Assembly (NCBI GenBank): GCA_048500355.1
Contig: JASNYD010000004.1
Location: 128,001-192,000, forward strand
Length of the DNA stretch: 64,000 bases
Direction: 5' to 3'
From: Kofleriaceae bacterium
Lineage (GTDB): Bacteria > Myxococcota_A > Polyangia > Haliangiales > Haliangiaceae
This document shows positions 31,975-35,922 of this stretch, piece by piece (within the stretch, counting starts at the first letter, position 1; every line of letters starts with the position of its first letter). The translations under genes were made by a program, and so were the position numbers. Below the pieces are notes generated by a model, which saw nothing but the letters and a program-made list of their open reading frames with translations, was not told where the DNA came from and did no database searches.

Positions 31975-33387
31975 TCAGGTGAAGCGCACGTACTCGAAGT
32001 CGAGCGGGCGGCCGTTGATGCCGCGCGCCGGCGGCGCGATCCAGGCCGCCATCTTGCCCGGCTCGTAGACCGGCCGCATCAGGCTCTTGACGTACGCCTC
32101 GTCGGCGTCGCTCGGCAGCCAGCGGTCGCGGTCGGCCGCCCAGGCCTCGGCGGTGAGCTGCTCGCCCGCCGGCGAGAAGTGGCTCCCCGACCACATGCCG
32201 ATCTGACGATGGAACTTGCTCGACGGCAGGGTCAGCTCGAAGTCGACGCCCTCGTCCTGGATGGTCTTGTTCCAGCGGTCGACGCCGCGCTGGCAGTCCT
32301 TCACGTACTCGCTGCGCAGCACCTCGTTGAGGGCGTTGCGCATGGGGATGTCCTTGTGCACGACCTTGCCGCCCTCGAGCACGTCCATCGCGACGTACGA
32401 CTCGACGAGCCTGTGCTCGGCGTACTTGTCCTCCTTGTAGCGCCCCTTGAGGCCGGCGGCGAAGGCGTCGGCGGCGTTCGACGACACCTCGCCGCCGAAC
32501 AGGTCGAGCGACAGCGTGTACCAGAGGTTGAGGTACTTCTGGACCGTCGGCAGATCGATGCCGCCCTGGGCGCGGACGTCGCCGCCCGGCTGCTTCATGA
32601 GCTCGCACGCGCGCTTGACGATGCGCTGCACGCCGGTCTCGCCCACGAACATGTGGTGGGCCTCCTCGGTCAGCATGAAGCGGCAGCTCCGCGCCAGCGG
32701 ATCGAAGCCGCTCTCGGCCAGGGCGGCGAGCTGGTACTTGCCGTCGCGGTCCGTGAACATCGTGAACATGAAGAACGACAGCCAGTGGTTGTTGGGCGCG
32801 TTGAAGGCGCCCAGGATGCGCGGCCGGTCGCGGTCCCCGGAGCGGCGGGCGAGCAGCTCGTCGGCCTCCTCGCGGCCGTCGCGACCGAAGTAGGTGTGGA
32901 GCAGGTAGACCATCGCCCACAGGTGGCGGCCCTCCTCGACGTTGACCTGGAACAGGTTGCGCAGGTCGTAGAGCGAGGGCGCGGTCTGGCCCAGCATGCG
33001 CTGCTGCTCGACCGACGCCGGCTCGGTGTCGCCCTGGGTGACGATCAGGCGGCGCAGGAGGTTGCGGAACTCGCCCGGCACCTCGTCCCACACCGGCTGG
33101 CCCTCGAAGTCGCCGAAGCCGTGGACCCGGCCCTCCTGGCGGGGCTCGAGGAAGATGCCCCAGCGGTAGTCGGGCATCTTGACGTAGTCGAAGTGGGCCC
33201 ACCCGTTGGCCTCGACCGACACCGCGGTGCGCAGGTAGACGTCCTTGGTCTGGAAGCCCTCGGGCCCCATCTCGCTCCACCACGACAGGAAGCCGGGCTG
33301 CCAGGCCTCGAGCGCCCGCTGCAGGCGGCGGTCCGAGGACAGGTTGACGTTGTTGGGGATCTTCTCGTCGGTGAGGATGGTCGACAT
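31975..33387 (-). CDS. boxB: Benzoyl-CoA 2,3-epoxidase, oxygenase subunit B (BoxB, di-iron)
   Basis: 471 aa starting MSTILTDEKIPNNVNLSSDRRLQRALEAWQPGFLSWW. Near-diagnostic BoxB N-terminus and length. In frame with the longer artefactual ORF 31975..34416. Confidence 0.9.
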   Translation of the reverse strand: MSTILTDEKIPNNVNLSSDRRLQRALEAWQPGFLSWWSEMGPEGFQTKDVYLRTAVSVEANGWAHFDYVKMPDYRWGIFLEPRQEGRVHGFGDFEGQPVWDEVPGEFRNLLRRLIVTQGDTEPASVEQQRMLGQTAPSLYDLRNLFQVNVEEGRHLWAMVYLLHTYFGRDGREEADELLARRSGDRDRPRILGAFNAPNNHWLSFFMFTMFTDRDGKYQLAALAESGFDPLARSCRFMLTEEAHHMFVGETGVQRIVKRACELMKQPGGDVRAQGGIDLPTVQKYLNLWYTLSLDLFGGEVSSNAADAFAAGLKGRYKEDKYAEHRLVESYVAMDVLEGGKVVHKDIPMRNALNEVLRSEYVKDCQRGVDRWNKTIQDEGVDFELTLPSSKFHRQIGMWSGSHFSPAGEQLTAEAWAADRDRWLPSDADEAYVKSLMRPVYEPGKMAAWIAPPARGINGRPLDFEYVRFT

Positions 33388-33431
33388 CGTTCCCTCGCTG
33401 CGTGAGTCGGTCGCGGTGGATCGGGGCGCGC

Positions 33432-35066
33432 TCAGGTGCGCGTGAAGTGGAAGCTGGGGCGCTCGGGCCGGCCGTACAGGGTGAGCGCGCCGTGCTCGCC
33501 GGTGGCGTTGGCGCGGGTGAAGATCCAGTTCTGCCAGGCCGACAGCCGGCCGAAGATCTTGGTCTCGAGGGTCTCGGGGCCGACCCAGCGCAGCGACGCC
33601 TCCATGCCGGTGAGGGCGTCGGGCGAGAGCGAGGCCCGCTCCTCGATCGCGATGCGCAGCTCGTCGGCGAAGTCGATGTCGTCGAGCGCGATCGTGGCCA
33701 GGCCGAGGCGCTCGGCCTCCTCGCCGGCGATGGGCCCCTCGGCGCCCCGCGCCAGCACCTGCTCGACCCGCCCCGGCTCGCCGTAGAAGCGGGCCTCGAG
33801 CCGCGACAGCCCGCTCGCGGTCGGGTTCTGGCCGGCGTTGGCCGGCGAGGTGGCCAGCGCCACCTGCTCGTGGCCGTCGACCAGCATGTAGAGGCGGTCG
33901 GCGGCGAGCGCGGTCTCGAGCAGGATCCCGGCGAAGCAACTGTCGGCGCGGTCGGCGACGGCGAAGATCGAGCGCGCGGTGTTGTCGAGGCGCTTGAGCA
34001 CGCGCCGCTGCAGGAGCCGGACCTCGCGGCCGAAACCGGTGCCGTCCCGATCGAGGGCGGCGTCGTGGGCGAGGACGTGGGCGCGGTCGCCGGTGGTGCG
34101 GAGGACGATGACGCCGATCTCCGGGTAGTCGAAGCGGAGGTGGAGCAGCGCGTCGTCGAGCTCGCGGAAGGCGCGCAGGTCCCACAGGTCGGCGCCGGCC
34201 GCCGCCAGGTCGGCGGGGGGCGGGCCCTCGGGGCCGGCGATCGTGAGCTGCGCCGTGCGCGCCGCCGCATCGATCGCGACCGTGACGTGGCGGTAGCGGA
34301 GCGCGGTCGGCGAGATCGATGGCTCGAGCGGCGGCAGGCGCACCGCCGGACCGCGGGGCAGCGCCGGCTGGGCGGCGGCCAGCGCCTGGGCCCGGGCCTG
34401 GACCTCGGCGGCCCACTTGCTGCGCGGCACCAGGGCGTCGACCAGGCCCCAGTCGCGGGCGCGCTTGCCCTTGATGCCCTCGGCCACGGTGCAGAAGACG
34501 TCGGCGCGGTCGCGCCGCACCCGCCGCTTGTCGACCAGCCGGGTGAGGCCACCGGTGCCGGGCAGGACGGCGAGCAGCGGCGTCTCCGGGAACGACACCG
34601 CCGAGTTGCCGTCGTCGACCAGCAGGATCTCGTCGCAGGCCAGCGCCAGCTCGTAGCCGCCGCCGGCGGTGGTGCCCTGGCAGGCGGCGAGGAAGCCGAG
34701 GCCGGAGTGGGCGCTGGCGTCCTCGAGGTAGAGCCGGGTCTCGTTGGTGTACTTGCAGAAGTTCACCTTGAACGAGTGGCTCGACTGCCCGAGCATGTAG
34801 ATGTTCGCGCCCGAGCAGAAGACGCGATCGAGGTCGGCGGTGACGACGCAGGCCTTGACCTCGGGGTGCTCGAAGCGCAGCCGGGTGATGGCGTCGGCCA
34901 GCTCGATGTCGACCGACAGGTCGTAGCTGTTGAGCTTGAGCTCGTAGCCGGGGCGGTGCGGGTGGTCGCCGTCGACCTGCATCACCAGCCGGGCGATCGC
35001 GCCGTCGACGGTGAGCTTCCAGTGGCGGTAGCGATCGGGATGGGTCTCGAACCGGGTCGGATCCAT
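33432..35066 (-). CDS. boxC: 2,3-epoxybenzoyl-CoA dihydrolase / benzoyl-CoA-dihydrodiol lyase (BoxC, crotonase superfamily)
   Basis: 544 aa from MDPTRFETHPDRYRHWKL. Enoyl-CoA-hydratase-fold motifs (FCSGANIYMLG, GGGYELALACDEILLVDD). Size and context match BoxC. Confidence 0.85.
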   Translation of the reverse strand: MDPTRFETHPDRYRHWKLTVDGAIARLVMQVDGDHPHRPGYELKLNSYDLSVDIELADAITRLRFEHPEVKACVVTADLDRVFCSGANIYMLGQSSHSFKVNFCKYTNETRLYLEDASAHSGLGFLAACQGTTAGGGYELALACDEILLVDDGNSAVSFPETPLLAVLPGTGGLTRLVDKRRVRRDRADVFCTVAEGIKGKRARDWGLVDALVPRSKWAAEVQARAQALAAAQPALPRGPAVRLPPLEPSISPTALRYRHVTVAIDAAARTAQLTIAGPEGPPPADLAAAGADLWDLRAFRELDDALLHLRFDYPEIGVIVLRTTGDRAHVLAHDAALDRDGTGFGREVRLLQRRVLKRLDNTARSIFAVADRADSCFAGILLETALAADRLYMLVDGHEQVALATSPANAGQNPTASGLSRLEARFYGEPGRVEQVLARGAEGPIAGEEAERLGLATIALDDIDFADELRIAIEERASLSPDALTGMEASLRWVGPETLETKIFGRLSAWQNWIFTRANATGEHGALTLYGRPERPSFHFTRT

Positions 35067-35093
35067 GGGGCCAGGATCTAGCGTGGCCGGGAC

Positions 35094-35150
35094 TTGACCT
35101 GCAAGCAATTTATTGCTGGATTCACCGCCTGATATGCACTATAGTTCCGC
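35094..35150. promoter_or_regulatory. AT-rich divergent boxC/boxR control region with TTGACC, inverted repeat CAAGCAATttATTGCTGG and TATAGT
   Basis: This is the only AT-rich island in tens of kb. The near-perfect palindrome is centred at ~35110. TGCA half-sites are reminiscent of BzdR/BoxR operators. Confidence 0.45.
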
Positions 35151-35151
35151 C

Positions 35152-35922
35152 ATGGCCTCGCGCTCCTCCGGCGGCCACGGCGGCCGCGGCGACACCCTGC
35201 TCGGGCAGGTCGGGGCGCGGGTGCGAGCCAGCCGCCAGCAGCTCGAGCTGTCGCGGCGGGCCCTGGCCGAGCGCTCGGGCGTGAGCGAGCGCTTCCTGGC
35301 CCAGCTCGAGGGCGGCGCCGGCAACATCTCGCTGGCCCGCTTCGCCGACGTGGCGGCGGCCCTGGGCACGACCCCGGCCGAGCTGCTGGCCGGGCTGGCC
35401 CCGGCGCCCCGGCGCAAGGCGGTGGCGCTCCTGGGCGTGCGCGGCGCGGGCAAGTCGACCGTGGGCAGCGAGCTGGCGCAGCGGCTCGGCGTGCCGTTCG
35501 TCGAGCTCGACCAGCACATCGAGAAGCAGGCCGGGCTCAAGCTCGGCGAGCTGTTCGAGCTCCACGGCGAGGCCTACTACCGCAAGGTCGAGCGCGAGGT
35601 GCTGCGCGCGCTCCTGGCCCGACCGGCGGCGATGGTGCTGGCCACCGGCGGCTCGATCGTCAGCGACCCCGACAACTACGCCTTCCTGCGCGCGCGCTGC
35701 CTGACGGTCTGGCTCAAGGCGCGGCCCGAGGATCACTGGAACCGCGTCGTCCAGCAGGGCGACCGCCGGCCCATGGCGCGCAACCCGCACGCCTACGCCG
35801 AGCTCGAGGCGCTGCTCGCCGCCCGCGCGGCGCTCTACGCCAGCGCCCACCACACCGTCGACACCAGCCGCCGCCCGGTGGCCGCGGTCGTCGACCAGCT
35901 CGCGGCGCTGGCGGCGGGGTAG
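35152..35922 (+). CDS. boxR: BoxR/BzdR-type transcriptional regulator (XRE HTH + shikimate-kinase-like domain)
   Basis: HTH segment LSRRALAERSGVSERFLAQLEGGAGNISL, then P-loop kinase-like LLGVRGAGKSTVGSELAQRLGVPFVELD. Alternative starts at 35113 and 35134 lie inside the operator region. Confidence 0.8.
   Translation: MASRSSGGHGGRGDTLLGQVGARVRASRQQLELSRRALAERSGVSERFLAQLEGGAGNISLARFADVAAALGTTPAELLAGLAPAPRRKAVALLGVRGAGKSTVGSELAQRLGVPFVELDQHIEKQAGLKLGELFELHGEAYYRKVEREVLRALLARPAAMVLATGGSIVSDPDNYAFLRARCLTVWLKARPEDHWNRVVQQGDRRPMARNPHAYAELEALLAARAALYASAHHTVDTSRRPVAAVVDQLAALAAG

Follow-up and report, generated by a model that had tools for sequence, protein, structure and literature searches.

The 64 kb stretch of DNA analysed here (the window) comes from an uncultured MAG of a soil myxobacterium of the Kofleriaceae (Myxococcota). 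Judged from its sequence, it very probably encodes a functional, self-contained module for benzoyl-CoA dearomatisation and ring cleavage, composed of a boxC-boxB operon and a divergent boxR. Genes for the reductase BoxA and for a ligase are missing from its neighbourhood, which is the normal layout in Myxococcota and in most other phyla. The conserved boxR/boxCB layout, together with an operator pair in the spacer, points to a conserved self-contained box core with its partners encoded in trans. This explanation as a whole, including a leaning towards a reductase other than BoxA, is the one we consider probable. The features concerned are the following.

31656-31847, + strand: small lipoprotein gene, 63 aa, convergent, with signal peptide, lipobox Cys and DPCG repeats; boundary, outside the system
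31975-33387, - strand: boxB, benzoyl-CoA 2,3-epoxidase (diiron oxygenase), 470 aa, TIGR03225; second gene of the boxC-boxB operon
33432-35066, - strand: boxC, 2,3-epoxybenzoyl-CoA dihydrolase (ring-cleaving, crotonase-fold), 544 aa, TIGR03222 and ECH_1; first gene of the operon
35105-35116, no strand assigned: BoxR operator site 2, reading GCAATAAATTGC on the strand of boxC, within the palindrome 35102-35119
35113/35152-35922, + strand: boxR, BzdR/BoxR-type regulator (XRE helix-turn-helix plus shikimate-kinase-like), NF006015, HTH_3 and SKI; divergent from boxC
35136-35147, no strand assigned: BoxR operator site 1, reading GAACTATAGTGC on the strand of boxC, spaced 31 bp from site 2 and abutting the boxR start codon
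35929-36600, + strand: metallophosphoesterase gene, 6 nt after boxR, Metallophos E = 1.5e-10; boundary, probably outside the system

Gene content of the box module

An initial annotation had named BoxB, BoxC and a helix-turn-helix/shikimate-kinase-like regulator, and all three identities pass the curated family cut-offs. BoxB scores 784.9 bits against the curated profile TIGR03225 (cut-off 499.1) and aligns end to end with the Aromatoleum (Azoarcus) evansii BoxB structure 3PER (E = 1.8e-196). In the alignment to 3PER it keeps all six diiron ligands (E120, E150, H153, D211, E240 and H243) and all of the substrate-shell (benzoyl-binding) residues Q116, T119, S123, F193 and T210, the residue list being that of PMC5489048. 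A Kofleriaceae MAG protein 100% identical to the window BoxB is annotated as BoxB, and BoxB identity within the Kofleriaceae is 77-90%. BoxC scores 744.1 bits against TIGR03222 (cut-off 712.3), contains an ECH_1 domain and matches the structure 2W3P over residues 3-543 (E = 3.6e-175). boxC lies upstream of boxB on the same strand with a gap of 44 nt, and no frameshifts or inactivating site substitutions were seen in either gene.

BoxR scores 288.9 bits against NF006015 (cut-off 204), with HTH_3 at residues 38-91, SKI at residues 110-264 and the P-loop GVRGAGKST, and is about 38-45% identical to proteobacterial BoxR. The longest boxR reading frame opens at TTG 35113, but the start codon is probably ATG 35152, because a start at the TTG would run through the operator. 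The ATG is separated from operator site 1 by 4-6 nt, both here and in the related loci L001-L003.

The flanks had been described as a metallophosphoesterase and a small lipoprotein, in agreement with the Metallophos match and the signal peptide and lipobox. The lipoprotein translation opens MRTLKVAVLALSLAVFAVGC, and a terminator-like hairpin follows the gene at 31916-31943; together the convergent gene and the hairpin close the operon 3' of boxB and so leave no room for boxA. On the other side, the metallophosphoesterase gene is not kept beside boxR in relatives, L001-L003 carrying other genes there. The wider flanks hold kinases, heme synthesis, cell-envelope genes and similar.

The claim that boxA and a CoA ligase are missing for at least 20 kb on each side was upheld over the full 64 kb. 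About 50 GC3-supported ORFs from all parts of the window were scanned with Pfam and gave no AMP-binding, Fer4+FNR or Aldedh proteins and, with no Aldedh protein, no BoxD (3,4-dehydroadipyl-CoA semialdehyde dehydrogenase). A tblastn search of the window with reference BoxA and benzoate-CoA ligase gave a best E of 1.9, and ten references for BoxA, an NADPH-dependent 2x[4Fe-4S]/FAD reductase, had no match there at E <= 1e-3. Since these scans were negative across the window, the absence of partners holds for about 32 kb upstream and about 28 kb downstream of the core. The Pfam scans also placed no biosynthetic genes adjacent to the module.

A genuine 2Fe-2S ferredoxin is encoded at 26258-26581 (Fer2 match) and is a poor candidate for the BoxB donor: its gene belongs to a DNA-glycosylase operon, keeps its synteny in L003 alone, is absent from all other box loci and has no BoxR operator nearby.

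Operators and proposed mechanism

The boxR-boxC spacer contains two GCAMTATANTGC operators, spaced 31 bp, and site 2 is followed by TTGCAG, a -35-like hexamer of the boxC promoter. The palindrome at 35102-35119 occurs once in the window against 0 copies expected from shuffling, CTATAGTGCA is present there as a single copy, and the degenerate operator 12-mer has only two sites in the 64 kb, both in the spacer. Loci of the Kofleriaceae and Polyangiales keep site 2 at this position. When BoxR-bearing genome loci were scored for the GCAMTATANTGC operator pair with a threshold of two mismatches, at least one site was found in 33 of 35, as a pair 31-32 bp apart in most and as a single site in a few; L035 and L056 have no site over threshold. 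Loci without BoxR were devoid of operator sites in 42 of 45 cases, single sites occurring in L032, L046 and L074. In metagenomes the pattern site1-N17/18-site2 gave 76 matches, two of them chance matches on low-GC contigs and 74 on high-GC contigs, where the operator pair adjoins a Kofleriaceae-like boxR and/or boxC. The same scan, which required the exact pair and which variant sites would escape, found no second Kofleriaceae-type operator pair outside boxR-boxC.

BzdR/BoxR of Azoarcus sp. CIB has the same build of XRE helix-turn-helix and shikimate-kinase-like domain as the window BoxR; set beside that system, boxR in the window is divergent from boxC. As in BzdR/BoxR systems, the window operators are paired, palindromic and of the TGCA-N6-TGCA type (GCACTATAGTGC), which we take to match the published BzdR operator. 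Site 2 overlaps the boxC promoter at its -35 region, and site 1 abuts the boxR start codon. On the Azoarcus paradigm, BoxR would repress both promoters until benzoyl-CoA accumulates. By analogy with the A. evansii enzymes, BoxB would epoxidise benzoyl-CoA with O2 and two electrons, and BoxC would hydrolyse the resulting epoxide, giving formate and 3,4-dehydroadipyl-CoA semialdehyde. The electron donor, the benzoyl-CoA source and the downstream dehydrogenase would all be supplied in trans, none being encoded or visibly co-regulated with the module. Possible sources of the benzoyl-CoA itself are an unlinked ligase and the endogenous breakdown of phenylalanine/cinnamate.

Box loci in relatives

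The partners had been called usually adjacent, and the cluster unusual for being without them. This view did not survive comparison with the 80 species-level loci whose BoxB is closest to that of the window. Only four of the 80 have boxA within 10 kb of boxB, all of them Burkholderiales, and boxA is adjacent in 4 of the 37 loci that have at least 8 kb on both sides of boxB. A ligase is adjacent in 22 of the 80, and neither boxA nor a ligase lies within 10 kb in any of the 22 Myxococcota loci; a cluster with boxB and boxC only has also been published for Sedimenticola (PMC4453571). FNR, Fer4 and Fer2 genes are lacking near boxCB in every non-Burkholderiales locus, even at E <= 1e-3, and ORF clustering revealed no conserved alternative partner near boxCB. 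An Aldedh gene lies near boxCB in nine other loci, including L020 and L021 of the Polyangiaceae.

Three relatives with BoxB identities of 80-85% contain the boxR / boxC-boxB triad with otherwise different flanks, and with no boxA, ligase or Aldedh gene within 10 kb of it. As the flanks differ between relatives, there is no conserved wider neighbourhood. The triad without these partners is found also in all five Kofleriaceae-like genome loci that have contig sequence upstream of boxC and in the majority of Polyangiales loci, among them those of the complete Sorangium genomes NC_021658.1 and NZ_CP150349.1; it recurs in the 74 Kofleriaceae-like metagenome contigs, as boxR and/or boxC beside the operator pair. 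Polaromonas, Ramlibacter, Oceanibacterium and a member of the Acetobacteraceae (L072) have a ligase and boxR beside boxCB, yet no adjacent boxA.

The textbook boxABC operon is thus a minority of box loci, and the conserved unit is boxC-boxB, often with boxR and the operator pair. For this reason, pathway-completeness rules that ask for BoxA next to BoxB, or for any BoxA, may count too few of the aerobic benzoyl-CoA degraders in soil Myxococcota, Acidobacteriota and Actinomycetota. The operator pair offers a handle on the rest of the regulon in complete Sorangium genomes, and thereby on the real electron donor.

Electron donor and alternative explanations

BoxA is the only known, experimentally shown BoxB reductase (PMC4498308, PMC5489048), which speaks for an ordinary split pathway with a true BoxA, a benzoate-CoA ligase and BoxD at other loci of the same genome, as in Azoarcus/Burkholderia. 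We rate this as a serious contender, at somewhat under an even chance. Some BoxA-family genes lie apart from box genes, examples being those of a R. leguminosarum plasmid (L094) and of Cupriavidus chromids; the BoxR/operator system is found in Proteobacteria as well; and the proteobacterial loci with ligase and boxR also have no adjacent boxA, though related families have a named BoxA. PGAP-named BoxA is found in the alphaproteobacterial families Acetobacteraceae and Xanthobacteraceae and, since the Acetobacteraceae locus L072 has none nearby, some lineages probably have an unlinked true BoxA. In R. leguminosarum, however, the unlinked 'BoxA' adjoins an FAD oxidoreductase and its replicon has no boxB, a context in which it may serve another enzyme, and Fer4-FNR reductases of the BoxA family serve Rieske and P450 enzymes elsewhere. 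The absence of a second operator pair from the metagenome scan also argues against a split pathway, as does the actinomycete Nonomuraea, whose 11.85 Mb near-complete replicon has boxB and boxC and is not among the 12 records with full-length BoxA obtained with two different BoxA queries, an example of the two genes occurring without BoxA. In two proteobacteria-biased searches (best 120 each), all taxonomically named BoxA among the matches listed are from Pseudomonadota; that none of the 240 listed clusters is Myxococcota-named is a weak test, with little power for a Kofleriaceae BoxA. We hold it an evenly balanced call that the donor would not be a dedicated, BoxR-co-regulated BoxA and would more likely be a reductase of the ferredoxin/FNR type with its gene at another locus; a true BoxA orthologue may be missing from the genome. 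More tentatively, the Kofleriaceae and most non-proteobacterial carriers of boxB/boxC (Polyangia, Acidobacteriota, Planctomycetota, Chloroflexota, Actinomycetota and others) may lack BoxA genome-wide, with BoxB reduced by a housekeeping ferredoxin/FNR or other non-dedicated reductase. BoxA would then be a proteobacterial add-on and not a defining subunit of the epoxidase, and the myxobacterial module would use benzoyl-CoA made without a dedicated benzoate-CoA ligase.

That boxA and a ligase lie just outside the window is highly improbable. The contig is much longer than the window, and a BoxB of 100% identity is known from a contig of 948 kb, but genes more than 28 kb away would have no useful adjacency, and the Myxococcota loci, the variable flanks of relatives and the unrelated character of the window's own flanking genes all stand against it. 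Unlikely too, if a little less so, is that the module is either a relic or now used for something else than benzoate catabolism, for example detoxifying endogenous benzoyl-CoA (a polyketide starter) or putting the epoxide to biosynthetic use. In favour of this reading, myxobacteria derive benzoyl-CoA for their natural products from phenylalanine, and ligase, BoxD and lower-pathway genes are absent nearby in all Myxococcota loci. Against it, the module has no biosynthetic neighbours, and the strong conservation of the three proteins, the intact active site and the operator pair kept across phyla indicate purifying selection on a canonical regulated activity.

Comparison with known systems

The window module is an ordinary further example of the known box core, with genes already named BoxB/BoxC in public MAG annotation; its layout is typical of the lineage and of little consequence for the window itself. 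The classical box clusters of A. evansii, Paraburkholderia xenovorans, Mycetohabitans and Comamonas testosteroni comprise boxA, boxB and boxC with bclA, boxD and boxR. Their proteins are orthologous to those of the window (BoxB 62-65% identity, BoxC 52-56%) with the same diiron ligands, and they share with it a BoxR-type regulator, the operator motif and adjacent, co-oriented boxC-boxB. Unlike these clusters, the window lacks boxA on either side of boxB as well as the ligase, hydrolase and DUF4863 genes, its boxR points away from boxC instead of lying co-oriented upstream of it, and its operon ends at the convergent lipoprotein gene.

Sedimenticola, a gammaproteobacterium that also has an anaerobic bcr pathway, is likened to the window by the described gene content of its cluster, boxB and boxC only. 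Strain CUZ grows aerobically on benzoate, with pathway peptide counts 9x higher on benzoate and O2 than on benzoate and perchlorate, and the missing reductase is undiscussed in that paper (PMC4453571). Nonomuraea gerenzanensis resembles the window in having boxB and boxC with no boxA nearby, but it has a PaaX-like regulator gene between the two, an adjacent ABC transporter, and neither BoxR nor a BoxR operator. Whereas the window module has no reductase with its oxygenase, the operon for PaaABCDE (phenylacetyl-CoA epoxidase) encodes its own reductase PaaE and structural subunits. PaaA nevertheless belongs to the same diiron family as BoxB (PF05138 weak match, 4MUD match), and both systems follow the same logic, in which a CoA thioester is epoxidised and its ring is then opened by hydrolysis.

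Core genes of the box locus

The Kofleriaceae belong to the Haliangiales within the Polyangia, Myxococcota, and the window has a G+C content of about 75%. Because random open reading frames are plentiful at this composition, genes were called by third-position G+C, and about 50 of the genes so obtained were scanned against Pfam and NCBIfam. The window is rich in Ser/Thr kinases and in PEGA, WD40 and CFI-box-CTERM proteins. The core genes boxC and boxB lie on the reverse strand, divergent from the regulator gene boxR.

Features of the box locus and its flanks (window coordinates, strand, description)
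31656-31847, +, gene for a lipoprotein of 63 aa that has a DPCG repeat four times; a terminator-like hairpin comes after it
31975-33387, -, boxB (TIGR03225, 784.9 bits, cut-off 499.1)
33432-35066, -, boxC (TIGR03222, 744.1 bits, cut-off 712.3)
35105-35116, spacer, operator site 2
35136-35147, spacer, operator site 1; with site 2, the only matches in the window
start 35152, +, divergent regulator gene boxR (NF006015, 288.9 bits, cut-off 204), with HTH_3 and shikimate-kinase domains
35922-35929 (junction), +, metallophosphoesterase gene after boxR, 6 nt 3' of it

The initial annotation identified BoxB, BoxC and the regulator correctly, as all three score above their family cut-offs. The A. evansii structure 3PER is alignable with the whole of BoxB, which keeps six of six diiron ligands as well as the benzoyl-binding shell, residues listed in PMC5489048, and BoxC is alignable with 2W3P. 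The boxC-boxB pair is a genuine, intact, BoxR-regulated module. A protein recorded under the name BoxB on a 948 kb contig of a Kofleriaceae MAG matches the BoxB of the window with 100% identity.

The flanking genes had been described as a metallophosphoesterase and a small lipoprotein, and annotation found both. The 6-nt gap after boxR suggests co-transcription with the metallophosphoesterase gene in this genome, a pairing not kept in relatives. Next to the lipoprotein gene, 29796-31406 (+) encodes an fn3 protein with a C-terminal CFI-box-CTERM sorting domain. On the other side, an open reading frame of 1080 aa (36624-39866, +) carries an extended low-complexity run of E/P/G/S repeats at about 38350-38760 (EPEPEPGS..., GSVPETDP...), and its product has no match in Pfam or NCBIfam.

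Absence of partner genes and layout in other genomes

The domain scan of the 64 kb yielded neither an AMP-binding ligase nor a Fer4/FNR reductase nor an aldehyde dehydrogenase, and tblastn of the window with the reference BoxA and benzoate-CoA ligase of the canonical Mycetohabitans cluster gave no match, which bears out the earlier observation that boxA and the ligase are absent near the core. The 2Fe-2S ferredoxin at 26258 was rejected as a box-specific donor, being syntenic only in one relative (L003), placed in a glycosylase operon and lacking an operator. Synteny between the window and L003 takes in the genes for the fn3 protein, a PolB-like exonuclease, a DNA glycosylase, the Fer2 protein and a PEGA kinase.

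The boxR / boxC-boxB triad is common to three relatives with 80-85% identical BoxB (L001-L003), whose neighbourhoods otherwise differ and hold no boxA, ligase or aldehyde dehydrogenase (Aldedh) gene within 10 kb. The comparison was extended to the 80 loci ranking highest in BoxB similarity, with one genome taken per species. They belong to Kofleriaceae, Polyangiales, Acidobacteriota, Planctomycetota, Chloroflexota, Rokubacteria, Binatia, and Alpha-, Beta- and Gammaproteobacteria, and the Polyangiales among them include the two complete Sorangium genomes NC_021658.1 and NZ_CP150349.1. With ten BoxA references as queries, adjacent boxA was found in 4 of the 80, all Burkholderiales; all four fall among the 37 loci for which 8 kb or more of sequence is available on each side of boxB (4/37). 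Neither boxA nor a ligase was present in any of the 22 Myxococcota-labelled loci, and outside the four boxA loci no FNR, Fer4 or Fer2 gene was found near boxCB at E <= 1e-3. When the open reading frames of the 80 loci were clustered, only BoxB and BoxC were universal, with BoxR in 37 loci, the ligase in 22 and Aldedh in 9; clustering and Pfam revealed no conserved alternative reductase beside boxCB in the BoxA-less loci. Other regulators include TetR in Acidobacteria and a PaaX-like protein in Nonomuraea.

The comparison does not support the oddity implied by the initial annotation: the module represents the conserved core of the pathway in its usual arrangement among Myxococcota and the majority of other phyla, and the locus in the window is an ordinary example of a known module type. 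A literature search found no explicit discussion of box loci that lack boxA; some BoxA-less contexts are flagged as 'incomplete' in PMC10803450. Of more interest than the locus itself is a by-product of the comparison, that boxA adjacency is a proteobacterial speciality, as perhaps is BoxA itself.

Operators and regulation

A palindromic 12-mer (consensus GCAMTATANTGC) occurs twice in the 85-bp spacer between boxR and boxC, with starts 31 bp apart, and the operator pair can be written as GCAMTATANTGC-N19-20-GCANTANANTGC. A -35-like TTGCAG follows site 2. Site 1 lies at a distance of 4 nt from the ATG at 35152, and the recurrence of this geometry in L001-L003 favours 35152 as the true start of boxR. 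BoxR-encoding loci among the 80 mostly have paired sites spaced 31-32 bp apart, a few having a single site and two (L035, L056) no site above threshold; of the loci lacking BoxR, only three have a site. A metagenome scan with the Kofleriaceae form of the pair matched 76 stretches. All 74 high-GC matches adjoin Kofleriaceae-like boxR and/or boxC (boxR and boxB in contig L136), and the other two are low-GC chance matches. No BoxA or ligase was found in the DNA examined on these stretches, and the same scan revealed no second BoxR-type promoter in the Kofleriaceae-like contigs. Taken together, the pair in the spacer, the co-occurrence of sites with BoxR and the metagenome matches make it a well-supported prediction from sequence that BoxR controls boxCB and boxR itself.

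When the spacer was scanned for sigma-70 promoters with strict criteria, there was no match. Within 35067-35100 a -10-like element, CTAGAT (TATAGT in L001), lies only about 8-13 nt upstream of the boxC start codon, and no Shine-Dalgarno sequence was seen before boxC there or at the corresponding positions of L001 and L003. The boxC transcript may have little or no leader.

The reductant of BoxB

Searches for a Kofleriaceae BoxA by phmmer, clusters and profile, all of low power, found none. With Mycetohabitans BoxA as the phmmer query, only Burkholderiaceae were among the matches listed. LB400 BoxA retrieved about 13 full-length clusters from a library of 50%-identity representatives. All five divergent clusters checked (<50% identity; P0248, P0260, P0261/P0392, P0270/P0394, P0271) adjoin Rieske or P450 genes and none has box genes beside it, while P0244 and P0339 belong, by genomic context, to proteobacterial-type box clusters. 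With a profile built from the four representatives that were still unplaced, the matches listed had only Pseudomonadota names, and every named BoxA among the matches listed is proteobacterial. Gene context indicates that Fer4-FNR fusions less than about 50% identical to BoxA serve oxygenases of the Rieske and P450 types, and the 2x[4Fe-4S]-FNR fusion appears to act as a reductase for oxygenases in general. Such fusions, 41-48% identical to BoxA, lie beside Rieske/P450 genes in L006, L010, L091, L092 and L093.

The initial annotation proposed that the partners are encoded elsewhere or that a generic reductase serves the oxygenase, and we consider the two about equally probable. Reduction of BoxB by a donor other than BoxA is favoured by the Nonomuraea gerenzanensis record (L005, NZ_LT559118.1), which carries boxB and boxC on 11.85 Mb and no full-length BoxA, falling outside the 12 full-length-BoxA records with either of two queries; BoxA-less carriers therefore exist. 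It is also consistent with the transient action of BoxA in catalytic amounts and the co-purification of BoxC with BoxB (PMC4498308), and with the box cluster of Sedimenticola CUZ, described as boxB and boxC only and expressed on benzoate plus O2 (PMC4453571). However, BoxA is the sole demonstrated BoxB reductase, unlinked BoxA-family genes occur, and named BoxA proteins are known from some proteobacterial families whose box loci are BoxA-less.

The Nonomuraea box locus differs in arrangement, comprising an ABC transporter, boxB, a PaaX-like regulator, boxC and an amidohydrolase; the chromosome-sized record is filed as 'plasmid I'. On an R. leguminosarum plasmid (L094, NZ_CP030763.1), a gene annotated as boxA (8980-10218, 57-59% identical to true BoxA) adjoins an FAD-dependent oxidoreductase on a replicon lacking boxB and boxC. 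It is either an unlinked BoxA or a case of an over-applied equivalog name.

Variant and mislabelled loci

In L136 (LNFM01003575.1, 9243-11395), a Kofleriaceae-like contig, boxB is the immediate neighbour of boxR and the operator pair, and no BoxC match was found in the 11.7 kb examined. The locus may have been rearranged or may be a variant that lacks boxC. L003 (GCA_016717005.1, 8224-10000) lacks a gene call between boxR and boxB where tblastn covers 69% of BoxC; its boxC is probably frameshifted, through assembly indels or as a pseudogene. Two further contigs are probably mis-binned or mislabelled, namely L063 from a 'Synechococcus sp.' MAG (61% G+C, betaproteobacterial-type box locus) and L030 from a 'Rickettsiales' MAG (71% G+C, myxobacterial-type box locus).
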